Source: Kiritimatiellia bacterium (GTDB lineage Bacteria; Verrucomicrobiota; Kiritimatiellia; RFP12; UBA1067). From it: a stretch of DNA of 64,000 nucleotides. Numbering within the stretch: the stretch's first letter is position 1; every line of letters starts with the position of its first letter. The stretch spans positions 4,697 through 68,696 of the forward strand of contig JAZOQU010000040.1 of assembly GCA_045656225.1 (NCBI GenBank). Reading direction: 5' to 3'. Below the pieces are notes generated by a model, which was not told the DNA's origin, made no database searches, and was given only the letters and a program-made list of their open reading frames with translations. Below are positions 31,973 to 55,081 of this stretch, in pieces. The translations under genes were made by a program, and so were the position numbers.

Positions 31973-32003
31973 AGTAATATTTTGCTGTAAGATGCTAAAA
32001 TCA

Positions 32004-33612: not shown

Positions 33613-33736
33613 GTAGTGATGATGATGGATGATTATAAAATATCAGAAAACTTCCAATGCGGGGCGGGTTGTAAAATGATTTCACCCCACCACTCTCACC
33701 CCGCCAATGGGGTCAGTCCCGTTCCCCATTCCCCAC

Positions 33737-38083: not shown

Positions 38084-38112
38084 TCAGTAAAAAACTGAAA
38101 ACTAAACTAAAA

Positions 38113-38137
38113 GGCTCGGGGCAACCCGGGCCTTTTT
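38113..38137 (+). terminator. Rho-independent terminator of P1
   Basis: GGCTCGGG-gcaa-CCCGGGCC followed by TTTTT. Confidence 0.8.
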
Positions 38138-38189
38138 AGTCGTTAGTGATTAGTCGTTAGTGATTGGTGATTAGTCGATAGTCGCTAGT

Positions 38190-38534: not shown

Positions 38535-38578
38535 AGATAAACATTGGCTGTGTTATGCATAGCGTTTTTCTTTCGAGA

Positions 38579-38989
38579 TTATTCTATCGGTACTCCATCG
38601 CCCCAGACTCGTTTTGGAGGAGTATTATTTTTGGTACGAACGCGTTTTGGCTCAGGCTTGTTAAATTTATTCAGTTCAGCGATTTGAAGCGGCGTCAATG
38701 TTGGTGGTGGAAGCACTAAAGAGATTTTATTAAGAACATTTAGGCATCGTAGTATTGACATAAATGATTCAAGGTGAATTCCACCAGCGCCATTTTCAAG
38801 GCGTGAGAGCGCATAGCGTGAAAGACCAGCCTGTTGCGCTAATTCTTCTTGTTTCATTCGTGAGCTAATGCGAAGATAAGCTATTCGTCGGCCTATTTCT
38901 TTTAACAAAGCGATATTAGGGAGTTCATTTGTTATGTCCATAGTGTGTCGTTTTTGTGTTGTTAGACTATGATTAATAGATTTACGCAT
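38579..38989 (-). CDS. XRE-family HTH protein with Pro/Lys-rich C-terminal extension (likely start MDITNEL at 38941)
   Basis: IGRRIAYLRISSRMKQEELAQQAGLSRYALSRLENG; tail KFNKPEPKRVRTKNNTPPKRVWGDG. Confidence 0.7.
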   Translation of the reverse strand: MRKSINHSLTTQKRHTMDITNELPNIALLKEIGRRIAYLRISSRMKQEELAQQAGLSRYALSRLENGAGGIHLESFMSILRCLNVLNKISLVLPPPTLTPLQIAELNKFNKPEPKRVRTKNNTPPKRVWGDGVPIE

Positions 38990-39057
38990 TAGATATGTGA
39001 CATATTAAACCATATTTTAATGAGAGATGCAAGTGCTTCGATATTTTAAAGTAAATA

Positions 39058-39179
39058 AGAGGTTGTTGTCGACTTTAACGAGATTAAGTAATCAGTAAAA
39101 AAATGAAAGCTAAACTAATAGGCTCGGGGTAACCCGGGCCTTTTTTAGTCGAAGGGCGGTTTTGGGAGTTAGCCGCAAA
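39058..39179 (+). repeat. Orphan 3' end plus terminator of a surface-protein family member, with 33-bp tail repeat
   Basis: GGTTGTTGTCGACTTTAACGAGATTAAGTAA matches the last codons of P2 (VVVDFKEIK*). Then GGCTCGGGGTAACCCGGGCC-T6, then AGTCGAAGGGCGGTTTTGGGAGTTAGCCGCAAA, repeated at 42845-42877. Confidence 0.75.
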
Positions 39180-39431
39180 GGTATAATGTAGAGGACGCAA
39201 AGGTGGTCGTAAAGGACCTTCAGTTAATACGACTGCGGTATCTTTCAAAATACTCATATAAATGTGTGAAAGCAAAATGTCGGCAGAGTTGGCGATTTGC
39301 AATTGACTTTGAGCGGGGTTAGATGATAATGAGCCATTAGAACGTGAAGTTGAAGGAGTTTTGATTCTTCAGTGGAGAGTTTTTATTGATCGACTTTGGG
39401 CGGGTGAATTATTTTAATTGAACATTTTCAC

Positions 39432-39460
39432 TTGTAATATTTTACGGAAAAGCATATACT
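39432..39460 (+). promoter_or_regulatory. Candidate sigma70 promoter of P2 (-35 TTGTAA, 17 bp, -10 TATACT)
   Basis: Positionally homologous to the stronger P3 promoter. Confidence 0.45.
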
Positions 39461-39548
39461 TCAAATTACAAGATGAGGATTGGGTCGCTAGTTATGCATA
39501 AGAATTGCGATTTAACCGCGTTTAACGACTGCGGATGTAATTCTTATA

Positions 39549-39561
39549 CCCCCCCCCCCCC
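39549..39561 (+). repeat. Poly-C tract, 13 nt, in the P2 leader
   Basis: Counted directly; the homologous position upstream of P3 has C10. Confidence 0.95.
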
Positions 39562-39695
39562 GCAGCTCTAAGAAACTTAATACGCGCCAATTCTGGCGCG
39601 ATAATTCCACTAAAATTTCAAACGATATGTCACTATGGAGATTCTCTCTATAGTGCGCTTTCGTTTATTTAAAAACCTAAGAAAGAAGGTCACAA

Positions 39696-42605
39696 ATGAA
39701 ACAAAAATTAATAAGTAAATTAAAGCGAGTAGCGCTCGCGCTTTTCGCCGCGCTTTGCGTCGGCAGCGTGTGGGGAGCCGAAATCTACACAGGAGGCGAT
39801 CCGATCTGTACATTTGATGTTCAGACAAAGAAGCTATATTTTAAACGTGGATTTACACCGTTTGAAAAAGGAACATATTGCATTTATTGTACTTACTCAT
39901 ATAATAATCAATCGGGTGAACAAATTTCAGGGGAAGGGCGAGCGCAAATAACAGCTACCAAAACTTATTGGAATGATGATAACTATTGGCCGAGTCTTAC
40001 CAAGGAGTTTGTATTGTCAGATTTTCCTGTCGGTGGAGTTTTAACGGCGTCAGTAGCGTTTCAGAAGCAAAATGGTAGTGAATGGGTAAATTGCGAAGAA
40101 TATGGCGATAGCCCCATTGTATTAAATTATTCGTTTGATACGGGTGGCGTCCTTTCTTCGGACTGTATCTGGCAAGTAACGCCAGAGAAAAAGTTTATCA
40201 TTTCGGGTCAGACTTCTGGTGGAAATATAAAGTCGGTTAGAGTGAGATATGTCGTTGGAAATTCAGAATATGCGGAATTGTCGAATGAAGCACAGTCGGT
40301 TGATGCAGAATACGACCCAACAACAGGAGCGTACAGAGCAGAAATTCCGTTTACGGAAAACGGGATCTTTTTATCATATAGTGTTTTTGCCGTATATGGT
40401 GATGCGACTGAAAAAATATACACTGATGCTCAAAGTTCAGACAATGTTTTTAGTACACAATATAAAGAAAAAGCATCTTGCACTTATACATGGCGGGGAG
40501 AAGGAGAAGATGATATATGGACAAATTTTGCGAATTGGAATATGGAGGGATTAGGTTTTGGTTACCCTGGATTAAATTACGACAATATAACTGGCGAATA
40601 TGTTGCTGGTACAGACGGTGCAAGAAGTACTGTTCGCTTTGTTGGGAATGCGGAAATAGATCTTGAAGGGAAAGCATATGAGTTTTATGAGCAGAATGAT
40701 AGTACTTCTGCCCAAAATACGCCGTATCGCGGGCTTACTTTTGAGAAGCCCGATGAACTTGATAAAATGTTTGTTGTTCTTAAAAACGGTACAATTGGAA
40801 CTAAAGTACCTGCTGATAGATATGGGCCGCTTCTTCTTGGCGCGGCAGGTGTGGAGTTGGAATTCCGCAACGCTGAGTTTAAGATAAGAACCGCTAGTAA
40901 TTATCTTCGTCTTAACAAAGACGCTACGATTGTATTTTCCGGCGATGAAGGTCGGTCTAAGAATCAAGCGTGGTATTTCGCGCCGAAGAGCGATATGACG
41001 AATAGCCGTTTAGTATTTCGCAACTTCATTGGTTATACGTATTATAGCGCGGCTAATACATCAATTGCTTCTGGTTCAGTCGTTGAGATTACAAATTCGG
41101 TCTGGAAAGTTAGAACTGGAACGTCGGCTGATTCTTCCGCAAGTAACGGCTTTGCCGAGAGGGTGGTTTTCCGTGATGGTGATGATCGCCAAGCTCAGTT
41201 GAAGTGTGTTGCGTATTATAAGGTTGGAAATACGACTGATGATCAATGGGCTAATATCAATCTCAATAATACATACGATATTAAGATTCCTGCCGCAGGT
41301 CATGAAGACGCAAGTATTTTCGCAAAGAACTTAACTGCGGGTCCCACGGGTACTTTCGAGATTGATGTAACTGATTATGTGACGGGAGAAAGGGTGCCTG
41401 TTGTGGAATTAATGGGTACACCTGCGTATACGACACTTCCAAAGCTTGTGGCCAAAGCGAACGGTGCTGATGTTACTGATGCCCGCAACGCCAAGCTGGT
41501 GTGGGACGGCAACTTTATGTATTATCAGCAGGATTCGCAGAACGCAGCTTCGATCGGTGCTACTGAGTACGCGACGCTCGGCGAGGCGGTTGAGAAGGCG
41601 GCTGACGGCGCTGCGATTAAAGTTCTTAACAATTGCACCGCTGATACAGCTTGCGTAATCGCTAACAAGACGCTTACTATCGACTTGAACGGTAAGACGG
41701 TTAAGGCGAATGATACTGACGCGGCGACCGATGGCAATGGCGTATTCTGGGTTCAGGCTGGCGGCGTACTTACGCTTGAGGATTCGAGCGAGGATAAGAG
41801 CGGTACTGTAGACGGTAATGGCGGCAATGGCTATAAGATGGCCATTTGGGCTGATGGTGGTAAGGTTGTAATTAATGCCGGTAATTACGTCAATGATAAT
41901 GATGGTACTCATAATCAGTACGATCTTATCTACGCTAAGAACGGTGGCGAGATTGTAATTAATGGTGGTACCTTTAAGTGCGATACTCCCCGTTGGACGC
42001 TCAACAGTCACAATACGAAGCCGGGTACGTTCGTAGTTACGGGTGGTAAGTTCTATCAGTATAATCCTACTGACTTCGATACCGACGAAGCCGTTACGAC
42101 TTGGTGCGATGCTAAGTATCGTGCTGAGGCTGATGGTGATTGGTATATCATTAAGGAGGGCTACACTGTTACTGAGGAATCGGCTGCTACTGTTACCGCT
42201 GATACCGAGGCTGAAGCTTTGGCGCAGGTCGACTTTAGTGTTACTACCCCTGATGGCGTAGACGCTACCGCTTATAAGAACTACTTTAAGCTTGTTGCGA
42301 CTGAGACCGCCGAGGGTTCCAAGACTTGGACAGTTGCTCTCGCTCTTAAGGACGAGCTTAAGCCTGTAATCGCTGAGACGACCAATGATGATGGTACGGT
42401 TACTCCCGCTCTCACCTTTGAGGATGGTAAGGTTACGGTCAACATCGAGAACGAGCTCCCTGGTCTTTACTATGGCGTTCGTTATGCTACGACAGTTGAG
42501 GCGGTAGATGCCGCGGAGATTGTTCCTGGCTTTACGGTTACGCCCGCTGAAGGCGATACGGCCGGCTTCTTCAAGGTCGTTGTCGACTTTAAAGAAATTA
42601 AGTAA
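39696..42605 (+). CDS. Paralogous secreted surface protein P2 (969 aa)
   Basis: Signal peptide LKRVALALFAALCVGSVWGA. N-terminal and central regions collinear with P3; C-terminal ~150 aa collinear with P1. Confidence 0.85.
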   Translation: MKQKLISKLKRVALALFAALCVGSVWGAEIYTGGDPICTFDVQTKKLYFKRGFTPFEKGTYCIYCTYSYNNQSGEQISGEGRAQITATKTYWNDDNYWPSLTKEFVLSDFPVGGVLTASVAFQKQNGSEWVNCEEYGDSPIVLNYSFDTGGVLSSDCIWQVTPEKKFIISGQTSGGNIKSVRVRYVVGNSEYAELSNEAQSVDAEYDPTTGAYRAEIPFTENGIFLSYSVFAVYGDATEKIYTDAQSSDNVFSTQYKEKASCTYTWRGEGEDDIWTNFANWNMEGLGFGYPGLNYDNITGEYVAGTDGARSTVRFVGNAEIDLEGKAYEFYEQNDSTSAQNTPYRGLTFEKPDELDKMFVVLKNGTIGTKVPADRYGPLLLGAAGVELEFRNAEFKIRTASNYLRLNKDATIVFSGDEGRSKNQAWYFAPKSDMTNSRLVFRNFIGYTYYSAANTSIASGSVVEITNSVWKVRTGTSADSSASNGFAERVVFRDGDDRQAQLKCVAYYKVGNTTDDQWANINLNNTYDIKIPAAGHEDASIFAKNLTAGPTGTFEIDVTDYVTGERVPVVELMGTPAYTTLPKLVAKANGADVTDARNAKLVWDGNFMYYQQDSQNAASIGATEYATLGEAVEKAADGAAIKVLNNCTADTACVIANKTLTIDLNGKTVKANDTDAATDGNGVFWVQAGGVLTLEDSSEDKSGTVDGNGGNGYKMAIWADGGKVVINAGNYVNDNDGTHNQYDLIYAKNGGEIVINGGTFKCDTPRWTLNSHNTKPGTFVVTGGKFYQYNPTDFDTDEAVTTWCDAKYRAEADGDWYIIKEGYTVTEESAATVTADTEAEALAQVDFSVTTPDGVDATAYKNYFKLVATETAEGSKTWTVALALKDELKPVIAETTNDDGTVTPALTFEDGKVTVNIENELPGLYYGVRYATTVEAVDAAEIVPGFTVTPAEGDTAGFFKVVVDFKEIK

Positions 42606-42633
42606 TTACTAATTACTGAATAGTTAAACTAAA

Positions 42634-42659
42634 AGGCTCGGGATACCCCGGGCCTTTTT
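42634..42659 (+). terminator. Rho-independent terminator of P2
   Basis: GGCTCGGG-atac-CCCGGGCC followed by TTTTTT. Confidence 0.8.
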
Positions 42660-42794
42660 TGTTATTAGTGTTTTTTGTGGCTGTGGAGCATTGGGTTGGC
42701 GCCTACCTTCTTAATAATCCTAGGGTTTTGGGATTGAAATCCAAAAAAAATATAATAAAACGGGATTGAAATCCTTATTATATTTCTCATTTTA

Positions 42795-42877
42795 TAAAGT
42801 AATACTTGAAGTGATAAAAGGCTCGGGGCATCCCGAGCCTTTTTAGTCGAAGGGCGGTTATGGGAGTTAGCCGCAAA
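42795..42877 (+). repeat. Second orphan family terminator plus 33-bp tail repeat
   Basis: AAAAGGCTCGGGGCATCCCGAGCCTTTTT, then AGTCGAAGGGCGGTTATGGGAGTTAGCCGCAAA. Confidence 0.7.
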
Positions 42878-42898
42878 TTGCGATCTTTGGGTTCTTTG

Positions 42899-43036
42899 CG
42901 GTAAAAAAAGTGTGTAAAGTCACAATTATTTTCCCTTCATATTGCTTTTAGAGGTAAATCTGTAGTATAATATGTATAAACGAAGGTAAAAAAAATGTGT
43001 AAAGGCGCAATTATTTTTCCTTCATAATGTTGTTTT
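42899..43036 (+). repeat. Two ~50-bp direct repeats upstream of the AAA ATPase gene
   Basis: GGTAAAAAAAGTGTGTAAAGTCACAATTATTTTCCCTTCATATTGCTTTT (42899-42949) vs GGTAAAAAAAATGTGTAAAGGCGCAATTATTTTTCCTTCATAATGTTGTTTT (42985-43036); GTAGTATAAT lies between them. Confidence 0.8.
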
Positions 43037-43042
43037 GATGAA

Positions 43043-44353
43043 ATGGAGGTTGTTATGCAGGTTAAAAGAGATGTGTTTTTAAATAGGCTTATTGCGCGTA
43101 AAGAGAATGGGATGGTTAAGATTATAACCGGTCTTAGGCGATGCGGTAAATCATATCTTTTAAGTGTTCTTTATAAAAATTACCTTCTTTCACAAAATGT
43201 GGCTGACGATCATATAATCGAGATAGCTTTGGATGAAGCTGAAAACTATAAATATCATAATCCGTTGAAGTTAGACTCTTTTATAAAAGAAAAGATAAAG
43301 GATAATGATACATATTATGTCTTTATTGATGAGATACAATATGTAAAAAAGATAAAAGTTAAAGATGAGCAGCTTGATGAGGCCGAAGAGATAACATTTT
43401 ATTCAGTTTTAAATTCCTTAATGCGTCGGTATAATATCGACTTATATGTGACAGGGTCGAATTCAAAAATGCTTTCCAATGATATCAGGACGGAATTTCG
43501 CGGGCGAGGTGATGAAGTTCATATTACACCTTTTACATTCTCGGAGTTTATGCAAGTATATGATGGTGATGTTCGGGATGGATGGGAAGAATATTTGGTT
43601 TATGGAGGTTTACCCTTGGCTGTTATGGCTTTGGATCACGAATCTAAGAGTAGATATCTTAAAAATCTTTTTGAAGAGACATATCTTAAGGATGTTGTAG
43701 AGCGCAATAAAATTCGTAAACCAGAAAGTCTTTCTGAGGTTCTTGATGTTTTGGCTTCAAGTATCGGGTCATTGACAAATCCATTAAAGATAGAAAATAC
43801 ATTTAAAACAGTTCGACATACGATATTGAAGTCTAAAACAATTTCTTCATATATTGCTAAATTAAAAGACTCATTTTTAATAGATGAGGCGCGAAGATAT
43901 AATATAAAAGGGCGAAAATATATATCCGCGCAGACAAAATTTTATTTTTCGGATGTTGGTCTTCGCAATGCACGGTTAGGTTTTCGCCAGTTGGAAGAAA
44001 CCCATATTATGGAGAATATTATTTATAATGAACTGAAGGTTCAAGGATTTGATGTAGATGTTGGTATCGTAGAAAAGCACGAGAAGAATGAAGAAAAGCA
44101 TGGATGTAAAAGACAATTGGAAATTGATTTCGTAGCGAACCGTGGTAATAAAAGGTTTTATATTCAGTCAGCTTTATCAATTGATGACTTAGAAAAAGCT
44201 CAGCAAGAAAAAAGGTCTTTGAGTAATATAGATGATTCTTTTAGAAAGTTGATAATTGTTGGTGGGAAAAAGCCGGCATATATTGACGAAAGTGGATATG
44301 TAATTGTAGGAGTTATAAATTTTTTACTGAATTCGAACGAATATTTGATATAA
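43043..44353 (+). CDS. AAA+ ATPase of the COG1373 / DUF4143 type
   Basis: Walker A GLRRCGKSYL, Walker B YYVFIDEIQY, typical ~430-aa length. Confidence 0.75.
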   Translation: MEVVMQVKRDVFLNRLIARKENGMVKIITGLRRCGKSYLLSVLYKNYLLSQNVADDHIIEIALDEAENYKYHNPLKLDSFIKEKIKDNDTYYVFIDEIQYVKKIKVKDEQLDEAEEITFYSVLNSLMRRYNIDLYVTGSNSKMLSNDIRTEFRGRGDEVHITPFTFSEFMQVYDGDVRDGWEEYLVYGGLPLAVMALDHESKSRYLKNLFEETYLKDVVERNKIRKPESLSEVLDVLASSIGSLTNPLKIENTFKTVRHTILKSKTISSYIAKLKDSFLIDEARRYNIKGRKYISAQTKFYFSDVGLRNARLGFRQLEETHIMENIIYNELKVQGFDVDVGIVEKHEKNEEKHGCKRQLEIDFVANRGNKRFYIQSALSIDDLEKAQQEKRSLSNIDDSFRKLIIVGGKKPAYIDESGYVIVGVINFLLNSNEYLI

Positions 44354-44412
44354 GATTAATTAGCGTTTCGCTTACTTTGTGACGTGTACGATCTTACCCC
44401 CCTCGTTTCTCC

Positions 44413-44441
44413 TTGCAGAATTTTATCAAAAAGCGTATAAT
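44413..44441 (+). promoter_or_regulatory. Near-consensus sigma70 promoter of P3 (-35 TTGCAG, 17 bp, -10 TATAAT)
   Basis: Spacing counted directly; about 230 nt upstream of the P3 ATG. Confidence 0.55.
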
Positions 44442-44529
44442 AGAAATATACTGATGAAGGGGATTATGACAGATACGCTTGAGAATTGCGTTTTAACCGC
44501 GGCTGACGGCTGCGGACGTGATTCTTGTA

Positions 44530-44539
44530 CCCCCCCCCC
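44530..44539 (+). repeat. Poly-C tract, 10 nt, in the P3 leader
   Basis: Counted directly; homologous to C13 at 39549-39561. Confidence 0.95.
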
Positions 44540-44673
44540 AGTCCTCTAAGAATACAAGATAACGCTGTTTTAAGAGCGTTAATCTCATTAGATTTCAAAC
44601 CCAAGTCCATTATGGGGATATGCTCCATAGTGGGCTTTCGTTTATTCATAAATAACCTAAAAAGAGGAGTAAT

Positions 44674-47600
44674 ATGAAAGAAACAAAAAAACTCAAGTGC
44701 TTCAGTAAATTGAAGCGAGTAGCGCTTACATTGTTCGCCGCGCTTTGCGTCGGATCAGTGTGGGCGGCGAATCCAACCGTATACCTAGAGGCAAGTTGTT
44801 CTTTGTCAGCTCAAGGCGTAATATCAGTAAATGATTCATTTGCATATTTTGGAAAAACAAGTGCTCGCACCTTTACGACTAAGGTGTCATATAAAATTAA
44901 TGATGGGGAGATAGTAACTGTATCGCTTAATACGACAGACTCACTTACGCCATCATCCACAAGTTCGTCCGCAGCTATCTGGAGAGGTGGCGAATATACT
45001 ACCAATGTAGAAGGCTTTGTTCCTGGCGATGTAGTTTGGGTTAAATATGAATTGGAGTATAGTGGAGAGGTAGGAGGCAAAACGAGCCAGTCTAAGGAAT
45101 ACACTTTTGATACGAATGGTGTTGTTGAAAGTGCTGGCAGTTGGGCGTTTTCTCCGAATAGGTTTTTAGTAAAAGGTAGTGTGCCTCTTGGCAAGGGTAT
45201 TGAGTCTGTTAAAATTCGCTATGCTATGAATTCAGATTTATTTTCTAATGAAGAGGCTACAACAGATACGTTATTAGCGACAGAATCGGCTCAGGAAAAT
45301 ACTAAGAGTGTTGACGCAGAAGGAAAGTTTGTTTTTGAGATTCCTTTCGTTGCAGAGCATAGTACATTAGTTTGGAGTTTGTGGGCGGTATTTAATGATG
45401 GAACTGAGAAGTTATATGTTAATGCTGCTGAAGAGACATCGTTGTTAAAAATGGAGCGTAAGGAAGAAGCGTATGTTAAATATACGTGGAATGGCGAAGG
45501 AGGCAATAACTCTTGGGATAATCCTTTAAATTGGACTATGGAAGGCTTGGGTTGGGGCTTGCCTGGCCTTGTTGTTAATAATACTGATGGTGTGTATGTT
45601 GCTGAGACCGATGGTGCAAGAAGTACGGTTTGCTTCGCAGGTAACGCTGAGATAGATCTTGGTGGTAAAACATATGAGTTTTATGAGCAAGATGATAAGG
45701 GTATAAAATATGTTCCCTATCGTGGTTTGGAGTTTGAGAAGCCAGCTGATATGGAAAGAATGGAAGTTGTCTTAAAGAACGGAACTCTTGGAACTAAAGT
45801 TCCTGGTGATTCCAATGGTGAACTTCTCTTGGGTGCCGAAGGAGTAAGCCTGGAGTTTTCGAATGCGACTTTCGCTATTAGGGGTGCTAAACAACTTATC
45901 GTTCCTAATGCAGGAGCAACTATTGTATTCTCAGGGATTAAGAATCATTCGTGGTATTATGCCCCTAGGGCGAGTTATAGTAAGAATTCACAAGTTGTGT
46001 TCAGGGACTTTTCTGGCTTAGCGTATTACGATACTAGTTTAGGAGTAGCGGATGGTTCAGTACTCGAAATTGCGAACTCGCTTATTAAGTTTAGAGTTGG
46101 TACTAAGAATACTCACACAGCTAGTAAAGGTTTTGCTAAGCGAGTCATTTTCCGAGATGGACCAGATAGACAGGCTATTATGAGAGTTTGTTATTACGCA
46201 TCAGGCGATGACTCGTATGCTAATATTAATCTTAACAATACATACGATATTAAGATTCCTGCTGAGGGGCATGAAAATGCGAGTATTCAGGCTCGAAATT
46301 TAACAGAGAATCCGACGGCGACTTTTGAGATTGAAGTAACGGATTATCTTAAGAGTGATCGAGTTCCTCTCATTAACTTAAGCCAAACTCCCACGTATAA
46401 AACGTTGCCCACTTTGGTTGCTAAGGCTAATGGCGAGGATGTAACTCAAGTTCGTAATGCGCGTCTTTTCTGGGATGGAAAAGTTCTTTATTATCAGCAA
46501 AATAACCAGCATGTTGCTTCAATCGGCAGTGTTGAGTATGCTACGCTCGCCGATGCGTTCGCCGCGGCTGAGGCTGGCGCTACGGTTAAGCTCCTCAACG
46601 ATGCAACGCTCGCTGAAAAGATCACTGTTAAGAAGGCTGTAACGCTCGATCTTAATGGTTGCACGCTTAGCGAGACTGTCACTGACAGCTATGGTGCAAT
46701 TTATATCGGAACGGCCGGTAATCTCACCATTACCGATTCTGCTACGGGCGGTAAGATCGCGACGGATGGTGGCATCGTTATTGGTAACTATGGTACTGTT
46801 ACCGTTGCGGGCGGCACGATTGAAGCTGGCGCGGTAGCTGAGGAAGACACCTCTGTCTATAACTTCTACTATAACGGCTCGACTTACGGTAAGTTGACTG
46901 TTAATGGTGGTAAGGTTGGTCGTATTTGGAACTGCGGTAATGCGAATATCACAGCTGGCGAAGTTGTCGATATCGACAATAGCGGCGCTATGACGATCGC
47001 TGAGGCTGCGACTGTTTCTGGTACTGTTATCATTAAGAATGGTTCTGACGCGGCTGATGTTCCCGGCGCTGGTACGCTCACTGCTCCTGAGAGCCTCACG
47101 GTTCAGGTCGGTAACGATGGTGCTGAGGCATTCTACGTTGATGGTAAGTGGTTGGTCCAGGTCGTTGTCGCTACTATCGGTGAAGCTAAGTTCGCTTCGC
47201 TTGATGCTGCTATCGCGGCGGCTGGTGCTGAAGATGAAGTTGTTGTTGTAGCTGATATCGCTACGGATGCCGCATTTGAGATTACTAAGAAGGTTGCCAT
47301 CAACTTGAACGGTAAGACGATCGCGACGACTCAGGCCGATACAGAAGGTAACGGTGTATTCTGGGTTAAGGCCGGTGGTGAGTTCACGCTTAACGGTGAG
47401 GGTACGGTCAATGGTGTTGGCGGTAACGCTTATAATATCGCTATCTGGGCTGATGGCGGTAAGGTTATCATCAACGGCGGCACTTATACGAACGAGGGTG
47501 CTCAGGATGACGGTCCTGACGGCGCTCACTTCGACCTTATCTATGTTAAGAACGGCGGCGCTGTTGAAATCAACGGAGGTACGTTCAAGTGCCAGACGCC

Positions 47601-48165
47601 AGAATGGACTCTTAACAGTCATGATACCAAGAAGGGTACAATCGTTGTCAACGGCGGCCTCTTCTATCAGTTCAATCCTAGCGATTGCGCTACTGAAGGC
47701 GCTGGCACCAACTGGTGTGCAGAAGGCTTGAAGGGCGCTGAGAGCGCCGAGAATGCAGGCTATTACGAAATCGTCGTTGCTTGGACCGCGCCTATGCCTA
47801 AAAAGGACGGCGACTCTGCGATCACCGAGGAGTATACCTCTGATGTTCTCGCGGCACTTCAGGCGGCGGTAGCGACGAGCGTCGATGTTAAGGTTAATGG
47901 CACCGAATTGAAGGGTAATGAAGCTGTTAAGGCTCTTAACACTGCCGTTAAGTGCTTCGACGGTGCGCTTACTTTTGATGGTACTGCCGCCAGCGTTGAC
48001 ATCGTAATTGAGGTAATCGAGGTTAATACCGAGGATCCTGCCGCTTCTACGGTCGTCGTCAAGCGCGGCGAAACCGTTCTCAGCGTCAAGACCGGCATTA
48101 CGCCTACGGTCAAGTACATTGACCTTGGCTCTGATGCCGTCGTTTTCAAGCTTGTTTTTGAGTAA
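44674..48165 (+). CDS. Paralogous secreted surface protein P3 (1163 aa)
   Basis: Signal peptide LKRVALTLFAALCVGSVWAA; collinear with P2 through the central region; extra beta-helix-like block; divergent C-terminus. Confidence 0.85.
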   Translation: MKETKKLKCFSKLKRVALTLFAALCVGSVWAANPTVYLEASCSLSAQGVISVNDSFAYFGKTSARTFTTKVSYKINDGEIVTVSLNTTDSLTPSSTSSSAAIWRGGEYTTNVEGFVPGDVVWVKYELEYSGEVGGKTSQSKEYTFDTNGVVESAGSWAFSPNRFLVKGSVPLGKGIESVKIRYAMNSDLFSNEEATTDTLLATESAQENTKSVDAEGKFVFEIPFVAEHSTLVWSLWAVFNDGTEKLYVNAAEETSLLKMERKEEAYVKYTWNGEGGNNSWDNPLNWTMEGLGWGLPGLVVNNTDGVYVAETDGARSTVCFAGNAEIDLGGKTYEFYEQDDKGIKYVPYRGLEFEKPADMERMEVVLKNGTLGTKVPGDSNGELLLGAEGVSLEFSNATFAIRGAKQLIVPNAGATIVFSGIKNHSWYYAPRASYSKNSQVVFRDFSGLAYYDTSLGVADGSVLEIANSLIKFRVGTKNTHTASKGFAKRVIFRDGPDRQAIMRVCYYASGDDSYANINLNNTYDIKIPAEGHENASIQARNLTENPTATFEIEVTDYLKSDRVPLINLSQTPTYKTLPTLVAKANGEDVTQVRNARLFWDGKVLYYQQNNQHVASIGSVEYATLADAFAAAEAGATVKLLNDATLAEKITVKKAVTLDLNGCTLSETVTDSYGAIYIGTAGNLTITDSATGGKIATDGGIVIGNYGTVTVAGGTIEAGAVAEEDTSVYNFYYNGSTYGKLTVNGGKVGRIWNCGNANITAGEVVDIDNSGAMTIAEAATVSGTVIIKNGSDAADVPGAGTLTAPESLTVQVGNDGAEAFYVDGKWLVQVVVATIGEAKFASLDAAIAAAGAEDEVVVVADIATDAAFEITKKVAINLNGKTIATTQADTEGNGVFWVKAGGEFTLNGEGTVNGVGGNAYNIAIWADGGKVIINGGTYTNEGAQDDGPDGAHFDLIYVKNGGAVEINGGTFKCQTPEWTLNSHDTKKGTIVVNGGLFYQFNPSDCATEGAGTNWCAEGLKGAESAENAGYYEIVVAWTAPMPKKDGDSAITEEYTSDVLAALQAAVATSVDVKVNGTELKGNEAVKALNTAVKCFDGALTFDGTAASVDIVIEVIEVNTEDPAASTVVVKRGETVLSVKTGITPTVKYIDLGSDAVVFKLVFE

Positions 48166-48197
48166 GATAAAAGCTTAAAAACTGATAAAGCATTTTT

Positions 48198-48249
48198 GCT
48201 GCCCGTGAAGGAGTTTTGTGACCCCTCCTCGCACGGGCAGCATTTTTTT
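48198..48249 (+). terminator. Rho-independent terminator of P3
   Basis: GCTGCCCGTG...CACGGGCAGC stem followed by ATTTTTTT. Confidence 0.8.
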
Positions 48250-48438
48250 GTGATAGAGAGCGAAGGGGGACTCCTAACCTCTTCCGTTAATTGTTATAAA
48301 AGCGGTATTTTATAGTGGGCGCATTTCCGTTTTTCACCGTCCCTTCTTTGTAATGAAACAACTAAAACTTATTCTTTATGCACGATGGGTTGTGTATGGA
48401 TGGTGGAAATGGTATAATAACGGCATCTAAGGGATGGG

Positions 48439-48744
48439 TTGCAAATTATGTGTATGCTTGACGATATACGAGCGAGGCGCGATGAGATATACGCTGTCGC
48501 AAGAGCGCACAAAGCCGAAAAACTTTGGGTGTTCGGTTCGTGTGCACGTAAAGAGGAAACGCCTGAAAGTGATATCGATTTTCTGGTGGAATTTGTTCCC
48601 GCGACAACAATATTCGATTATGTAAAACTTAAGGACTCACTTTCGCTAATTTTGGGACGAAATGTGGATATTGTGGATTCGTTTGTGTTGGAACGGGGAG
48701 ATAGATTTTCTGAAGAAGTTGCAAAGGATAGGGTTGCTGTATGA
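48439..48744 (+). CDS. MNT-type nucleotidyltransferase antitoxin (MntA-like)
   Basis: GSCARKEETPESDIDFLV (GS...DxD motif); extended -10 TGGTATAAT at 48410-48418. Confidence 0.8.
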   Translation: MQIMCMLDDIRARRDEIYAVARAHKAEKLWVFGSCARKEETPESDIDFLVEFVPATTIFDYVKLKDSLSLILGRNVDIVDSFVLERGDRFSEEVAKDRVAV

Positions 48745-49082
48745 TGCGTGATGCTCAGAGAATCGATCATATGCTTGGATTTGTCAGACGTTGTCTGGAA
48801 ATCCTTGACGGTGTAGATGAAGAAATGTACCTATCTTCATTGGATAAACAGGAGCAGGTCGAATTAAATATGCTGCATCTTGGTGAGGCTGCCGCCCGTA
48901 TTTCAGATGAGGTTAAAGAATTGCACCCAGATTTACCATGGAATGAAATGGTAGGAATGAGAAATGTTCTGACGCATGAATATTTTCGTGTAAAACCGAT
49001 TGTATTATACGAAACCGTAAGATCGGAATTTGTGACAATGGAAAAGAAGTTTGAAGAATTACAAGGGGAGTATCCGTTGTAA
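48741..49082 (+). CDS. HepT-like HEPN (DUF86) toxin
   Basis: RNVLTHEY (Rx4H HEPN motif); ATGA overlap with the MNT gene. Confidence 0.8.
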   Translation: MMRDAQRIDHMLGFVRRCLEILDGVDEEMYLSSLDKQEQVELNMLHLGEAAARISDEVKELHPDLPWNEMVGMRNVLTHEYFRVKPIVLYETVRSEFVTMEKKFEELQGEYPL

Positions 49083-49493
49083 ATTGATTTTCACATCAAT
49101 AACTATAGAATGAAAGGAAGAAACGAGAACTGATTGAAACTTTTATATCGGTCATGGTATTGAAGATGGCCGACTTCTCCACTTGCGTAGATGTTAGCAG
49201 TTAATCGATAGTAGCCAAGGAGTGAGAAGGTGTATGGGGTGGGAAACCTAACCTATGCAACGTACGCAATCTTGCGTATTTGGCTTTGTCTGAAAACGAC
49301 CAAATCTTCAATGAATAAAGCTGGATATGTAAGATGCGCTACGTGGAGTATTCCGCGTGGCGTGTCTTTTATTCGTGTTTTATTCAGGGCGCTTGGTCGT
49401 GCCTCAGACAAGACATGGATTTACAGGCACGCCACGTTTTTTTCGTCAGCGAGGCGTGTTGAAAGTAATGACGAAAATAATTAAAGGAGTAAA

Positions 49494-50102
49494 ATGAAAA
49501 TACCCAAAATGATGATTGCCGCACTCTGTGTAGGCAGTGTTATTACAAAAGTCATCGCTAATGATGATTTTGGCATTGAATCGGCCTCGCCTGTTGCTAT
49601 TGCCAATCCGGTTAATCCTCAGCCCGGAATGCAATTTTCTGGGTACAAAGCAAAGAAGACCTACTGGAACGACGAATGGCTTCAAGGTAGTATTGCTGGA
49701 CTTATAAAAGCGCCTGCTATTAGAACTATTGTTGATAAATCAGAATGTTACACTCTTAAAACCTTGGGGGACACTGACGCGAATGCCGGATTGTGGACAG
49801 GATTTTTAAAATGCAAAAGAACAGGTGTATACACTTTTACAATTACTGCAGATTCCCACACAGGTTATTCGTTGCGTGTGAACGGTAGACTTATCTTGCC
49901 TGCTGCGTCAAAGCAGACAAGTGTAGATGTTGCGTTAAAGACTGGATGGAATAAAGTTGAGTTCGCTTCTCATTTTTCTGTCAATCCATTACGCAAAAAA
50001 CCGATTAACATCGTTTATAAGCCAAAAGAGTCTTTGTCAGATGCGCGTCCGCTTACACCTGCGATGATGTTTCATGACAGGAAGGTAGAAGAGGCCTGGT
50101 AA
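49494..50102 (+). CDS. Secreted PA14-like domain protein
   Basis: Signal peptide with the family core AALCVGSV; TGVYTFTITADSHTGYSLRVNGRLIL resembles the PA14 core. Confidence 0.5.
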   Translation: MKIPKMMIAALCVGSVITKVIANDDFGIESASPVAIANPVNPQPGMQFSGYKAKKTYWNDEWLQGSIAGLIKAPAIRTIVDKSECYTLKTLGDTDANAGLWTGFLKCKRTGVYTFTITADSHTGYSLRVNGRLILPAASKQTSVDVALKTGWNKVEFASHFSVNPLRKKPINIVYKPKESLSDARPLTPAMMFHDRKVEEAW

Positions 50103-50120
50103 TATTGAAAGGAGTAGAAA

Positions 50121-50375
50121 ATGGACAAGAAAGATTTTAAAAAGTTAATAGGGTTTACAAAACTCGGAATATCATTTGCGGCTATAGCACCTTTTGTTGG
50201 ATGGGCACTAAGTGGGTTAAATGATATGGGTATGTATTTTAAGCATGCTCCCGAAAGAGCGTTCGTTTGGGCTATGGTAGGAATGGCGATTGGTAATGTT
50301 ATTACAGTATTTTTGGAAAAGCAAGAGTCTGCAAATAAAAAAGAGGAGGAGAAAGAATCACGGAATGATAATTAA
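50121..50375 (+). CDS. Small membrane protein, unknown function
   Basis: Two hydrophobic segments, Lys/Glu-rich tail; GGAG-type RBS. Confidence 0.45.
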   Translation: MDKKDFKKLIGFTKLGISFAAIAPFVGWALSGLNDMGMYFKHAPERAFVWAMVGMAIGNVITVFLEKQESANKKEEEKESRNDN

Positions 50376-50417
50376 ATATATTTGGTTGTAATTCAATTTT
50401 ATTTTAACTTTTCACAG

Positions 50418-50508
50418 TTTGGGGGTTGGGAGATATGGCGTTTAGGAGATGAAAGCGGAAATGCCTTTCTAATTATTTTCTCCATTCGCCTATCTCCAAG
50501 CCTCCAAA
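50418..50508 (+). other. Long imperfect hairpin (about 21 bp outer stem plus 5-6 bp inner stem)
   Basis: TTTGGGGGTTGGGAGATATGGCG pairs with CGCCTATCTCCAAGCCTCCAAA, hand-paired with G-U wobbles, one mismatch and one bulge. Confidence 0.6.
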
Positions 50509-50878
50509 TTTATTAGTGATTAGTATTGCTGCGTGCATATTTTTAGCGGTTAAGTGCGAGGTTTGCTCAGAGGTACAGGTGCGGGTATTTTTGCGACGAA
50601 GCGCGGGTTGTTCGTGAGTGATAGGCGAGTGTGCCAGAAGTATTTACTGGGGGAAATAAGAAGTTCTTGCTGGAGAAGGCTTGAGACACAGGAGTGAGTC
50701 GAGGTAAGACACAGGTGTACTGGTGTATTTTATTTCAGGCGACAGGTGCAGCAATAACAGTGCTATAAGTTTGTCATAAAACTTGCAAATTTGTCACTTC
50801 CGCTCTTAAAGTTTCTTAATCTTGGATTTAAATAATGTTGTGGTCGGTAGGTCGAGGTCAGCGTCTGGTATTGTGAAC

Positions 50879-50940
50879 TTATCAACAATATTATCAACAA
50901 CTGTTGATAAGTTGATAAACCTGTTGATAACTGTTGATAA
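50879..50940. promoter_or_regulatory. Cluster of six TTATCAACA / TGTTGATAA (DnaA-box-like) sites
   Basis: Forward at 50879-50887 and 50891-50899. Reverse at 50902-50910, 50910-50918 (8/9), 50922-50930 and 50932-50940. Abuts the -35 TTGTTA (50949) of the downstream HTH gene. Confidence 0.6.
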
Positions 50941-50984
50941 CTTCTCCCTTGTTAAATCCTGAATAATAGTCCATAATATATGCC

Positions 50985-51461
50985 GTGACAAATCTACATC
51001 CAGATATTTGCAGAAAAATTAAAGATGCTCGCAGAGAACGCGGCATCTCTCAGAGCCTGCTTGCTAAAGAAGTAGGTTGTAAACAATCTGCACTGTCGAT
51101 GTTTGAACAGGGTGACGGTACTAAGCTTAATGATGAAGTTATTAAAAAGCTTTGCGATAAGTTCGGTATTAAGTTATCTACAGAGAACGCAGCGGTAGAA
51201 ATTCCGGTTGTTCCTGCCCCTCAAAGAGTTTTTGAAGTTGAGAAGGGTTTTTGCCCTAATCCCAATTGTCCTTCTCATACAGCCTACGAGGTTGACGGGC
51301 GAAGATTCTTAAAGCCCGACCGCCGCATTCAGGATCCTGTCGGCGGCAAATTCTGCGCGATATGCGGTGAAGTCCTTGAGAAGCGTTGCCCTAATTGCGG
51401 CTCACTTGTTCATGACGGTGCCGTCTGTTCCATTTGCGGCGAGAGTTACGTCGCCATATAA
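50985..51461 (+). CDS. XRE-family HTH regulator with C-terminal zinc-ribbon domain (GTG start)
   Basis: IKDARRERGISQSLLAKEVGCKQSALSMFEQG; CPNPNCPSH...CAICG...CPNCG...CSICG. Confidence 0.7.
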   Translation: MTNLHPDICRKIKDARRERGISQSLLAKEVGCKQSALSMFEQGDGTKLNDEVIKKLCDKFGIKLSTENAAVEIPVVPAPQRVFEVEKGFCPNPNCPSHTAYEVDGRRFLKPDRRIQDPVGGKFCAICGEVLEKRCPNCGSLVHDGAVCSICGESYVAI

Positions 51462-51517
51462 ACGGCGGGGATATCTCAGACGAACGGGACGACAGCAAAT
51501 ATGGTATAATACCATAT

Positions 51518-51790
51518 ATGAAAAAAGCGATTATAACAGTTGTCGGTAAAGACGTCGTCGGCATCATCGCCAAGACGAGCGCCTATCTCGCCAAGAACAA
51601 CATCAATATTCTTGATATCTCCCAGACGGTTGTTCAGGAATATTTCAATATGATGATGATTGTCGACATCACGTCCTGCCGCAAGAGTTTTGAGGACGTT
51701 GCGGCCGGTTTGGGTGAACTCGGCCAGGCGATGGGACTTAAGATCCGCTGCCAGAAGTCCGAGATTTTCGAGAAAATGCACCGCGTATAA
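51518..51790 (+). CDS. ACT-domain protein (UPF0237 family)
   Basis: MKKAIITVVGKDVVGIIAKTSAYLAKNNINILDISQTV; extended -10 TGGTATAAT at 51502-51510; conserved pairing with UPF0210. Confidence 0.8.
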   Translation: MKKAIITVVGKDVVGIIAKTSAYLAKNNINILDISQTVVQEYFNMMMIVDITSCRKSFEDVAAGLGELGQAMGLKIRCQKSEIFEKMHRV

Positions 51791-51799
51791 GGGGGCGAG

Positions 51800-53164
51800 A
51801 TGATTAACATCACCGAAGTTCTCGAGACGAACAAAATGATTCTCGAGGAGAATCTCGATGTCCGTACGATCACGATGGGCATTTCGCTTCTCGACTGCGC
51901 GGACGCGTCGCTCAAGACGACGTGCGACAACATCTACGCGAAACTCACGACGTACGCGAAGGACCTCGTGAAGACGGGCGACGAAATCGGACGAGAGTTC
52001 GGCGTTCCCGTGGTCAACAAGCGAATTTCGATCACGCCTGCGGCCATCGTCGGTTCGGCATGCTGCAGGAAGCCTTCCGATTTCGTAAAAATCGCGAAGA
52101 CTCTCGACCGCGCGGCCAAGAAGGTCGGCGTCAACTTCATCGGCGGATATTCCGCGATCGTCTCGAAGGGTATGACCAAGGCCGATGAGCTTTTAATCCG
52201 ATCCATTCCCGAGGCTATGGCCGTGACGGAGCGGATCTGCTCTTCGGTCAATGTCGGCTCCACCAAGACGGGCATTAATATGGACGCCGTCCGTCTTATG
52301 GGCGAGATCATAAAGGCGGCCGCCGAGCGCACGAAGGATCGCGATTCCATCGGATGCGCGAAGATAGTCGTTCTTTGCAACGCCCCGGACGACAATCCGT
52401 TTATGGCAGGCGCGTTCCACGGCGTGAGCGAAGCCGACGCGATCATCAATGTCGGCGTATCGGGGCCCGGCGTAGTCAATCACGTTTTAAAGTCGATTCG
52501 CGGAGCCGATTTCGAGACTCTCTGCGAGACGATTAAAAAGACGGCGTTCAAGATTACGCGCGTAGGTCAACTCGTCGCCCAGGAGGCGTCGGCGCGTCTC
52601 GGCGTTCCGTTCGGCATTATCGATCTTTCGCTCGCGCCGACTCCCGCGATCGGTGACTCGGTAGCCGATATTCTCAAGGAGATCGGTCTTGAGCATCCGG
52701 GCGCACCCGGCACGACGGCGGCGCTCGCGCTTTTGAACGATCAGGTTAAAAAGGGCGGCGTGATGGCTTCGAGTTATGTCGGCGGTCTTTCAGGCGCGTT
52801 TATCCCCGTATCTGAGGATCAGGGCATGATCGATGCAGTGAACGCCGGCGCTCTTACGATCGAGAAGCTTGAGGCGATGACGTGCGTCTGCTCCGTGGGT
52901 CTCGATATGATCGCGATTCCGGGCGATACTCCCGCTACATCGATTTCGGGAATTATCGCCGACGAGGCGGCTATCGGCATGATCAACCAGAAGACGACGG
53001 CCGTAAGAATTATTCCTGTCGCCGGCAAGACGGTTGGCGATACGGTTGAGTTCGGCGGACTTCTCGGGTATGCGCCCGTGATGAAGGTGTCCAAGTTCTC
53101 TTGCGCCGATATGATCGCTCGAAAGGGCCGTATTCCCGCTCCGATCCATTCGTTCAAAAACTGA
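51800..53164 (+). CDS. UPF0210 (DUF711) family protein
   Basis: [72 protein letters not shown]: near-collinear with the family as I recall it. Confidence 0.9.
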
Positions 53165-53171
53165 TGTCGTT

Positions 53172-54266
53172 ATGAACGCGTTTTTCGCCGCAATCTGTTA
53201 CTGTATCGTCGGATCTAACCCAGGCTCGCCCAATAAAGAGGCTCTCCATGTTTTAGAATGCGACGATGCAACAGGCGCGGCGAAAATCGTTCAGACCGTA
53301 AATGGCGTTGAAGGTACTACGTACTTTCAGGTCAACAAGAAGGGCGATATGCTTTACAGTTTTATTTCTGAAAAGCGCGACGGTAAAAAGCGCGGCGCGG
53401 CGGTGGTATTCGATATAAAGGATAACCGTATAGGCGAGATGACTAAACTCGCCGCGCTGCCTTGCGAAGTCCCGTGCCATGTAGCGATTTCGCCTGATGA
53501 AAAATCATACGCATTCGCGGCATATACTTCCGGATGTTTTGGGTTAATGTCGTTTACTGAAGATGGTGGGATATGTAACTTTGTTTCAACTAGATTGGCT
53601 AATATAAATATGGGTCCTCGTAAGGATCGCCAAAAGAAGGCTTATGCCCATTGTATGGTTTATACGCCAGATGGAAAGATAATTGGCGTAATTGATTTAG
53701 GATGCGATGCAATTTTCTTTTATAATTACCCGTTCACCATTCACTTTTCCCCCTTCCCCTTTCCCCCTTTCCCATTCCGCATAAAATCCGATCCCGGTGA
53801 TGGCCCGAGGCACGCTATATTTTCGAGATGCGGTAAATATTTCTTTGTATTAAACGAGTTATCCTCGTCGGTTACGAGTTACGCGTATGACGGCGAAGAG
53901 AAGTTTACCCGCGTCGGAAAGTGGTCTATGTTGCCGAAGGGGACAGACCCCCTTACTACTAAGGCGGCTGCGATTAAGCTTACGGCTGACGGTAAGGTTT
54001 TAATGGCATCCAATAGGGGATGTGATTCGATCGCGTTTTTTGATGTTAAAGACAACGGGGAGCTTGAGCTTAAGAATATCGCTCCACTTAAGGGTAAGTT
54101 CCCTCGCGATTTTGAACTTATGCCGGGCGAAAAGTTTATGGTCGTCGGACATAAGATGTCGAACGAGATTCAGGTATATTCGTTCGACCGCGCCAAGTAT
54201 ACGCTTACCCCGGTCGGTGACGCGATACCGTGCTACCGCCCCCTATGCTTTAAGTTCCTGCCGTAA
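53172..54266 (+). CDS. Lactonase, 7-bladed beta-propeller family (Pgl/YbhE-like)
   Basis: GDGPRH motif, repeated blade pattern, 364 aa; contains a low-GC patch and a CT-rich tract. Confidence 0.6.
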   Translation: MNAFFAAICYCIVGSNPGSPNKEALHVLECDDATGAAKIVQTVNGVEGTTYFQVNKKGDMLYSFISEKRDGKKRGAAVVFDIKDNRIGEMTKLAALPCEVPCHVAISPDEKSYAFAAYTSGCFGLMSFTEDGGICNFVSTRLANINMGPRKDRQKKAYAHCMVYTPDGKIIGVIDLGCDAIFFYNYPFTIHFSPFPFPPFPFRIKSDPGDGPRHAIFSRCGKYFFVLNELSSSVTSYAYDGEEKFTRVGKWSMLPKGTDPLTTKAAAIKLTADGKVLMASNRGCDSIAFFDVKDNGELELKNIAPLKGKFPRDFELMPGEKFMVVGHKMSNEIQVYSFDRAKYTLTPVGDAIPCYRPLCFKFLP

Positions 54267-54304
54267 GGTTTTAAGTAGTCAATTAAAGAAGAAGGAAGAA
54301 GAAT

Positions 54305-55081
54305 ATGATTTACTCTTTTAAGTTTCGCAGAATTGTTGCAGTCGCGGCGATTGTACTGGGAGCGACGGCGTATGGCGCTAAGATTGATCCGTTTGATGCG
54401 GAATTATTAGAGCCAAGGTATTTTGCTGATGATGATCATCCTAACGGCGTGGAGTTTCTTCCTCCTCCTCCAGGATGGACGTCTGATCTTTTTACAGGCG
54501 ACTATGTCGGTTATCTTTGGGGTAAGACCGTTCGCGGAACGGAGCGCGGCAAAAAGGCGGTTGTTCAATCCACATTTCTTGTAGATGATTTCATAGCGCT
54601 ATTTAATGATGCGTTCGGTTATGAAATTTCACGCGAAAAGACGCCTGCGATTTATAAGGTTCTGCGTAAAAGTCTTATAACCGCCCGTCTTTCTTCATTG
54701 AAGCCAAAGAGAAGTTTTAAACGCACGCGCCCCTATGTCAGATATAATGAACCCACTCCCGTTCCCGAGACTGAAGAGAGGCTGCGCAATAACGGTTCAT
54801 ATCCCTCGGGCCACTCTCTTCGCGGATGGTGCATGGCGCTGTTACTTCTTGAAATCAATCCGGAATGTCAGAATAAGGTTTTAAAGCTTGGTCACGAGTG
54901 GGGAGAGAGCCGTGTAATTATCGGGTATCATTGGAAGAGCGATGTCGAGGCGGGTCGCGCATTGGCGAGCGCCGTTTACGCCAGACTCCACACCTCTGAG
55001 GAATTTCTTTCGGATATGGCCGCCGCGCGCGAGGAATTCAAGCGGATAAAAAATAAATCTGAAAAAGCAGACAAGAAATAA
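54305..55081 (+). CDS. Class A acid phosphatase (PAP2 superfamily)
   Basis: Signal peptide; KRTRPY, YPSGHS, SRVIIGYHWKSD signature triad. Confidence 0.8.
   Translation: MIYSFKFRRIVAVAAIVLGATAYGAKIDPFDAELLEPRYFADDDHPNGVEFLPPPPGWTSDLFTGDYVGYLWGKTVRGTERGKKAVVQSTFLVDDFIALFNDAFGYEISREKTPAIYKVLRKSLITARLSSLKPKRSFKRTRPYVRYNEPTPVPETEERLRNNGSYPSGHSLRGWCMALLLLEINPECQNKVLKLGHEWGESRVIIGYHWKSDVEAGRALASAVYARLHTSEEFLSDMAAAREEFKRIKNKSEKADKK

Follow-up and report, generated by a model that had tools for sequence, protein, structure and literature searches.

Introduction

In Bacillus subtilis, clusters of DnaA boxes mark a set of DnaA-regulated promoters, those of sda, ywlC, yydA and thdF-jag among them (Ishikawa et al. 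2007, PMC2533591). Whether DnaA binds these clusters stably depends on the density of the boxes and on their affinity, and the bound protein either activates or represses transcription (PMC2533591). Boxes located at a distance can also act through looping, as described for the boxes upstream in B. subtilis incC (PMC6669920). The basal unwinding system (BUS) of replication origins consists of a DnaA-box pair and a run of DnaA-trios (Pelliciari et al. 2021, PMC8287927). In Escherichia coli, the essential boxes of datA, a DnaA-titrating and DDAH locus, share one orientation and have an IHF site between them (PMC5742627). The core of DARS-type elements is made of three boxes at fixed spacing and promotes ADP release. 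Repeated sites next to a promoter may also call to mind the operators of XRE-family regulators, which are commonly autoregulated. A search of the literature on Kiritimatiellota origins found no report.

Here we describe an array of DnaA-box-like 9-mers in DNA from a gut/rumen Kiritimatiellia bacterium. The array lies within a 64,000-nucleotide stretch (the window) and abuts the promoter of a gene encoding a protein with an XRE-type helix-turn-helix (HTH) and zinc ribbons, denoted XRE-ZnR. With a probability that we put at roughly 0.6, the array would be a DnaA-box cluster of high affinity, through which DnaA controls this regulator and may also be titrated.

Results

Six tightly packed 9-mers adjoin the promoter of an XRE-type gene

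Direct reading of the window sequence between 50879 and 50940 identified five perfect TTATCAACA sites and a sixth carrying one mismatch, all within 62 bp (Table 1); the definition of a cluster used here was at least four own-consensus sites within about 100 bp. The window as a whole contains 10 perfect sites against 0.51 expected by chance (sd 0.78), a figure that none of 100 shuffles reached. Five of the 10 fall within the array, where box density is the highest in the region. The remaining perfect copies are at 18028, 20121, 20170, 35512 and 49730, the last two inside open reading frames. Boxes F2 and R1 together make a 20-bp palindrome, TTATCAACA-ac-TGTTGATAA. The overlapped arrangement seen in R1 and R2 is also present in relatives and at the dnaA promoter. 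Since some adjacent boxes overlap (8-bp period), simultaneous occupancy of all of them is impossible.

The array ends 8 nt upstream from the -35 hexamer of a TTGTTA-17-CATAAT promoter, and the GTG start codon of the XRE-ZnR gene follows 7 nt after the -10 hexamer. A first-pass annotation of the same DNA had proposed the six DnaA-box-like sites at these positions, the promoter pair with its spacing relative to the GTG codon, and a 158-aa HTH-zinc-ribbon product downstream from the array. All of these assignments were borne out, the product being composed of an HTH_3 domain and, at its C-terminus, a double zinc ribbon that carries four CxxC pairs. In an AlphaFold2 model of the protein (pTM 0.35), the HTH alone is confidently predicted; the linker appears disordered and the zinc-ribbon domain is poorly defined.

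Table 1. Coordinates of the array, its target promoter and surrounding features in the window
Feature	Position	Strand	Remarks
Element upstream of gidA	18026-18058		TGTTGATAActattaGATAAaTGTtaACA / TGTTGATAActnttnGATAAnTGTnnACA, one perfect box; conserved in at least 8 distinct relatives
gidA	18225-20102		
dnaA-promoter box set	20121-20178		TTATCAACA-N5-TGTTAATAA-GTTGATTAT ... TGTTGATAA
dnaA	20218-21669	+	
Origin unwinding module (BUS)	21820-21855	+	dnaA-dnaN spacer; conserved across clade
dnaN	21947-23041	+	
rlmL	23078-24310	+	RlmL-like THUMP methyltransferase
orf245	24307-25044	+	245 aa; last gene of dnaA-dnaN-rlmL block across clade
Lineage-specific insertion, left	~25045-33736		nucleotide comparison with close relatives L002 and L003
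Metallophosphoesterase gene	33737-34855	-	between the two insertions
Lineage-specific insertion, right	34856-50868		nucleotide comparison with close relatives L002 and L003
Box F1	50879-50887	+	TTATCAACA, perfect; forward box at equal offset from -10 in relatives
Box F2	50891-50899	+	TTATCAACA, perfect
Box R1	50902-50910	-	TGTTGATAA, perfect
Box R2	50910-50918	-	AGTTGATAA, one mismatch (position 9); one base in common with R1
Box R3	50922-50930	-	TGTTGATAA, perfect; belongs to -50 position class of relatives
Box R4	50932-50940	-	TGTTGATAA, perfect; promoter-proximal; best conserved position across clade
XRE-ZnR promoter	50949-50977	+	TTGTTA-17-CATAAT; -35 at 50949-50954, -10 at 50972-50977
XRE-ZnR gene	50985-51461	+	158 aa; HTH_3 (~residues 6-60), linker 65-87, C-terminal double zinc ribbon

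The promoter keeps its shape in relatives (TTGnnn-17-CATAAT), with a 17-nt spacer in 89 of 96 cases and 7 to 9 nt between the -10 hexamer and the start codon in 83 of 96. A Shine-Dalgarno-like sequence is absent before XRE-ZnR in 97 of 102 relatives, as it is in the window. This absence and the short distance from the -10 to the start codon suggest that the XRE-ZnR mRNA is leaderless. Metatranscriptome contigs from the Logan collection, short and of low depth, span the array into strain-specific upstream DNA and give no indication of where transcription starts. Within the promoter spacer, the sequence AAATAAAGTC (window 50955-50977 region, before CATAAT) is unusually conserved. It is retained even in promoters devoid of boxes and, for this reason, could constitute a separate operator or an element intrinsic to the promoter.

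The XRE-ZnR family comprises 885 clusters in our searches, with a nearly invariant HTH region (SQSxLAxEVGCKQSALSMFEQGDGTKLN). NCBIfam has no family for XRE-ZnR or for orf245. The HTH and the 9-mer are both invariant across the sampled clade, which makes covariation between protein and motif unusable.

The array accompanies the gene next to the dnaA block

Two scans with XRE-ZnR yielded 160 loci, nearly all labelled Kiritimatiellia (or, under older names, Lentisphaerae or Verrucomicrobia) and derived from ruminant and human guts. Mapping the window proteins onto these loci identified gidA-dnaA-dnaN-rlmL-orf245-array-XRE-ZnR as the typical order, found in most of them, L002 and L003 included. 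Nearly every locus, including those with a protein identity as low as 43%, has boxes resembling TTATCAACA upstream of XRE-ZnR, with a median of five boxes per array once near-duplicates are removed and one mismatch is allowed. As to whether relatives keep the array beside the regulator, a check that the first-pass annotation had called for, the answer is yes. Linkage of XRE-ZnR to the dnaA block was seen in 87 non-redundant loci, and every one of them carries the array, which is intergenic and adjacent to the promoter, with boxes at fixed positions relative to the -10 hexamer. Where the gene is unlinked, five of 11 loci, L008, L013, L016, L031 and L074, are box-less; their promoters retain the core, including AAAGTCCATAAT. 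The persistence of the core promoter without boxes suggests that the latter form a separable input module.

The layout of the array is also fixed, with forward boxes distal and reverse boxes proximal to the promoter. With the -10 hexamer as reference, forward boxes start at about -95 and -85 and reverse boxes at -70/-65, -50 and -40; in many lineages one further reverse box lies at -20, within the -35/-10 spacer. The pattern found in the window, FFRRRR, is the commonest, and FFRRR, FRRRR and FFFRR occur as well. Gaps between neighboring boxes are mostly -1 to 3 bp, the periods within arrays being 8 to 12 bp, and a forward-to-reverse gap of 2 bp (producing a palindrome of the F2-R1 type) is seen in 27 arrays. 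Array and gene are inverted as a single unit in five loci (L007, L018, L024, L027 and L040). In L053, the array lies between dnaA and XRE-ZnR, which are divergently oriented. A count of perfect sites over 1.27 Mb of related loci gave 299 upstream of XRE-ZnR and 45 upstream of dnaA; a further 23 are in the dnaA-dnaN spacer and 26 lie elsewhere. In two loci (L028, 6909-6935; L029, 6761-6787), a pair of perfect TGTTGATAA boxes spaced at an 18-bp period was also noticed 2.4 kb downstream from XRE-ZnR, in GC-rich DNA.

The 9-mer matches a clade-specific DnaA box

EM refinement yielded over-broad motifs for the dnaA-promoter set and for the dnaA-dnaN set, and positionally defined pairs were used in its place. 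The DnaA-box consensus of the clade was thus derived independently of the array, from 61 origin box pairs that abut DnaA-trios. It reads TT[A/G]TC[A/T>G>C]ACA, with A and G about equally frequent (~50:50) at position 3 and a distribution of 47% A, 33% T, 13% G and 7% C at position 6. The canonical box, TTATCCACA, is the rarest form among origin boxes and TTATCAACA is a consensus form. Inclusion of TTATCAACA in the origin-pair consensus makes it a consensus DnaA box in this clade, and the description of the array sites as DnaA-box-like fits the boxes that abut the trios at the clade's own origin.

Array and origin boxes differ in stringency. The former are stricter at position 3 (A 0.97 vs the near-even A/G split) and at position 6 (A 0.90 vs 0.47) and laxer at position 9, where T reaches a frequency of 0.33 in arrays and origin boxes are strict. 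Overlap with the preceding box or with the -35 hexamer accounts for part only of the T excess. The strictness of the array boxes possibly reflects selection for top DnaA affinity, or the action of a second protein with its own specificity. In Caulobacter, the highest-affinity DnaA boxes are reported to occupy regulatory sites and weaker ones the origin.

The DnaA protein itself was inspected by aligning its domain IV (window 21298-21666) to its E. coli counterpart (PDB 1J1V). Two reports name six residues as making base-specific contacts, R399, P423, D433, H434, T435 and H439 (PMC2533591, PMC7561715). With respect to the residues so named, D433 is replaced by K, S or T and T435 by A throughout the clade, R399 and H434 are kept, and H439 is mostly kept. 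P423 is variable (Q in the window), and a one-residue deletion falls just before the positions of D433 to T435. The substitutions fit recognition of a non-canonical box.

Besides the array, the 9-mers occupy the dnaA promoter and the region upstream of gidA (Table 1), which is the usual geography of DnaA boxes. At the dnaA promoter of relatives, a palindrome, TTATCAACA-N5-TGTTGATAA, is conserved and followed by an overlapping degenerate box.

The origin unwinding module lies in the dnaA-dnaN spacer

A BUS was defined as a single or paired box with three or more NAN trios (lower strand) starting within 16 bp beyond its ACA end, and AT-rich DNA after these. Such a module was found in the dnaA-dnaN spacer and not at the array. 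In the window its two boxes, TTATCTACA and CTGTCTACA, abut, and a 3-nt spacer (att) leads to the trios CTA TTA ATA ATA TAT, after which come AT-rich DNA and a conserved TATTTGATACAAT. The corresponding spacer of relatives likewise has two abutting forward boxes, a 3- to 4-nt spacer and CTA/ATA trinucleotides (3′-GAT/TAT-5′ in the lower strand), with T peaks at offsets 4, 7, 10 and 13. No DnaA-trios or AT-rich unwinding element were found beyond the ACA ends of the array boxes; trios are lacking because the boxes converge, each ACA end facing another box. Cumulative GC skew reaches its minimum at 18-19 kb and the genes change orientation at about 18.0-18.2 kb, the array (50.9 kb) coinciding with neither. 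The suggestion that the array might be the real or a second origin was not supported, given the canonical BUS in the dnaA-dnaN spacer and the missing trios in the convergent array.

Two insertions separate the array from dnaA

Homology between the window and the close relatives L002 and L003 (whose XRE-ZnR proteins are 94% and 91% identical to that of the window, respectively) extends through 21295-25040, reappears over the metallophosphoesterase gene and resumes at 50869. In L003, L004 and L082, this metallophosphoesterase gene is the immediate upstream neighbor of the array. In relatives, the dnaA-dnaN-rlmL-orf245 block (20218 to 25044 in the window) stops 100 to 250 bp short of the array. 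The distance of about 30 kb between array and dnaA, noted in the first-pass annotation, is therefore a derived state brought about by the two insertions and not a meaningful feature. Ancestrally, the array was about 2.3 to 3 kb from the end of dnaA and 2 to 3 kb from the origin unwinding site. The first-pass annotation had also placed the array at the right boundary of the low-GC segment. Homology to island-less close relatives begins at 50869-50877, so that the right end of the inserted segment falls precisely at the array. The junction between island and array is confirmed by L081, an independent contig of metagenome origin with 98.9% identity over 48115-52329. The possibility that the sites are phage or plasmid iterons, or otherwise part of the island, was discarded, island-free homology starting to the left of the first box and the array being conserved with a chromosomal gene. 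At the junction, Rfam gave no matches and no tRNAs were found.

Several features of the neighborhood were recorded along the way. Neither tRNA nor integrase genes are seen at the insertion junctions. The 25-51 kb cargo encodes a 1166-aa protein, an apiosidase-like hydrolase, an AAA_14/DUF4143 ATPase, a PA14 protein, two HipA-like kinases (29156-30046 and 32380-33522) and an MNT/HepT toxin-antitoxin pair (48439-49082). It includes three very large secreted proteins (~960-1160 aa), and the two that were checked have a near-identical signal peptide. In every comparison between genomes with differing upstream neighbors, homology starts 2 to 10 nt to the left of the first box (50869-50877 in the window; also L001, L002, L003, L004 and L082), so that the orf245/array junction looks like a recurrent insertion hotspot. 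The orf245 product has an acidic, coiled-coil middle portion and a conserved C-terminus (...NGEEYLLPSEIIKRNY) and matches no Pfam family. In every relative examined, the G+C content of dnaA is about 10 percentage points below that of the nearby DUF711 gene (window 18000-25000 and related loci), suggesting that part of the low-GC segment of the window is native origin DNA and not island. The genes for ACT-domain, DUF711 and lactonase proteins, which come after XRE-ZnR in the window (51462-54373), are absent from this location in L002 (4478-4628), and in L110 and L040 they are on the opposite side of the origin block. Rearrangements around the origin appear to be frequent. Finally, in three short contigs (L119, L139 and L147) XRE-ZnR lies about 156 bp after the 3′ end of gidA, the dnaA block not being between.

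Discussion

The most economical reading of these data is that, within the origin region, no locus would bind DnaA more strongly than the array, which forms part of the XRE-ZnR promoter. DnaA-dependent control of the regulator and a DnaA-titrating cluster were among the roles initially considered, and it is these that the findings favor, the array being tied to the promoter wherever the gene adjoins dnaA. DnaA monomers would occupy the tightly tiled boxes. Measured from the likely start of transcription, the box centers fall at about -48, -58, -78, -97 and -107, roughly one per helical turn. XRE-ZnR transcription would then track the level or activity of DnaA. Boxes upstream of the -35 could activate, as they do at B. 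subtilis sda, and the extra box that many relatives have in the -35/-10 spacer would repress. Since the cluster is copied right after initiation and would hold many DnaA molecules, it could double as a local DnaA sink. Any role in the control of initiation must be dispensable or adjustable, given that the array is 29 kb from the origin here and was lost in five lineages. The strictness of the array at positions 3 and 6, together with its laxity at position 9, is not obviously predicted by a single DnaA preference.

In the main alternative, the 9-mers are operators of XRE-ZnR itself, mediating autoregulation as well as control of dnaA through the sites at dnaA and gidA, and their likeness to DnaA boxes is competitive mimicry or coincidence. 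We consider this less likely. Several observations lend it substance. The array travels with the gene, the inversions described above moving both, and insertions leave it on the XRE-ZnR side; the recognition region of the HTH is as nearly invariant as the motif core, TATCAAC; the stringency of arrays is the reverse of that of origin boxes, which vary where arrays are strict (positions 3 and 6) and are strict where arrays are lax (position 9); and the perfect palindrome recurs in 27 arrays. A confident HTH followed by a disordered linker, as in the structural model, would permit flexible spacing. On the other hand, half-site spacing is inconstant (2 bp in arrays vs 5 bp at dnaA) and most boxes are direct repeats with periods of 8 to 12 bp, a variability that makes boxes bound by monomers likelier than a rigid operator for a dimeric HTH. 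In the window, moreover, the boxes stop 8 nt before the -35 and do not cover the core promoter, and five translocated XRE-ZnR genes encoding the same HTH have the core promoter without boxes. The motif is the consensus of the boxes that abut DnaA-trios, so DnaA binding is to be expected in any case. A combined scheme seems doubtful but draws some weight from positions 3 and 6, at which array boxes are strict and origin boxes vary. In it, XRE-ZnR would be an origin-linked regulator that reads a strict subset of DnaA boxes (core TATCAAC) and that, on its own promoter, on that of dnaA and in the region upstream of gidA, competes or cooperates with DnaA.

Other explanations fare worse. That the array is part of a replication origin, whether a second or the true one, or a distal subregion of boxes looping to the unwinding module, is very improbable. 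The array is indeed the densest box cluster in the region, ancestrally 2 to 3 kb from the dnaA-dnaN spacer, and arrays were lost exclusively when the gene left the dnaA neighborhood. Against this, the array lacks DnaA-trios and an AT-rich unwinding element, its boxes converge, a complete and conserved BUS is present elsewhere, and the GC-skew minimum is near 18-19 kb; furthermore, insertions between array and origin are tolerated (26 kb here and other sizes in relatives), and the position of the array is locked to the XRE-ZnR promoter. Least credible of all is a purely structural role as hairpin, cruciform, terminator of the dnaA operon or recombination site. The strand does fold into a long hairpin (-19.8 kcal/mol, z = -4.7) and insertion junctions recur at the left edge of the array; yet relatives keep the 9-mer and its position relative to the promoter and not the pairing register, no T-run follows the hairpin, and at gidA, dnaA and the origin the 9-mer is single or otherwise arranged. 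No compensatory changes were seen that keep pairing and alter box sequence. The hairpin or terminator was accordingly dismissed, the fold being a trivial result of convergent boxes.

These findings provide a first sequence-level picture of the origin region in an uncultured class, the gut and rumen Kiritimatiellia. The picture comprises the non-canonical DnaA box, TT[A/G]TC[A/T]ACA, matching substitutions in domain IV, a canonical module of box pair plus trios, and a strongest DnaA-box cluster that sits on the promoter of a conserved XRE-zinc-ribbon regulator. If DnaA does control this regulator, a clade-wide link would exist between replication status and gene regulation, comparable to that provided by sda in Bacillus. 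If the regulator itself binds the boxes, it would represent a new kind of origin-region regulator. Should XRE-ZnR read DnaA boxes, it would amount to a DnaA-box-mimicking controller, not described before, that acts on dnaA expression or replication initiation and is conserved across gut Kiritimatiellia.

Judged from its sequence, the array is a member of the known class of DnaA-box clusters. What is unusual is its combination of a non-canonical box, a convergent and fixed layout, a probably leaderless XRE-zinc-ribbon gene as predicted target and clade-wide synteny with the origin. Similarity is greatest in outline with the B. subtilis clusters, which also consist of closely packed intergenic boxes beside a promoter and are conserved among related species. 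In both cases one cluster drives a small regulator (sda there and, by prediction, XRE-ZnR here) and further clusters are found upstream of a gidA-type operon and of dnaA. Unlike the B. subtilis clusters, however, the array is built from TTATCAACA, with A/T and not C at position 6, and is accompanied by an altered DnaA domain IV; its layout is fixed and convergent, its target is an XRE-zinc-ribbon gene on a presumably leaderless mRNA, and it is physically within the origin gene block.

The E. coli loci offer partial parallels. Like datA, the array is a DnaA-box cluster near the origin that is duplicated early and could lower the amount of free or active DnaA after initiation. It departs from the datA type in that its boxes have mixed orientation (FFRRRR) and it overlaps a promoter; no IHF site was identified in it, and gaps of -1 to 3 bp leave no room for one. 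The F2-R1-R2 trio of boxes and the dnaA-promoter set resemble the DARS1/DARS2 core (box I opposite II and III) in orientation pattern, and the array differs from these elements by its additional flanking boxes and its promoter. With the BUS, the array shares 9-mers of the same box family and, on the promoter-proximal side, a tandem pair; it differs from it in having no trios beyond the ACA end of any box. As with autoregulated operators of the XRE/Cro type, an HTH_3 gene lies directly downstream from repeated sites, which include one perfect 20-bp palindrome. Unlike such operators, the array consists mostly of direct repeats of an asymmetric 9-mer at variable spacing, located for the most part upstream of the -35 and absent from some orthologous promoters.
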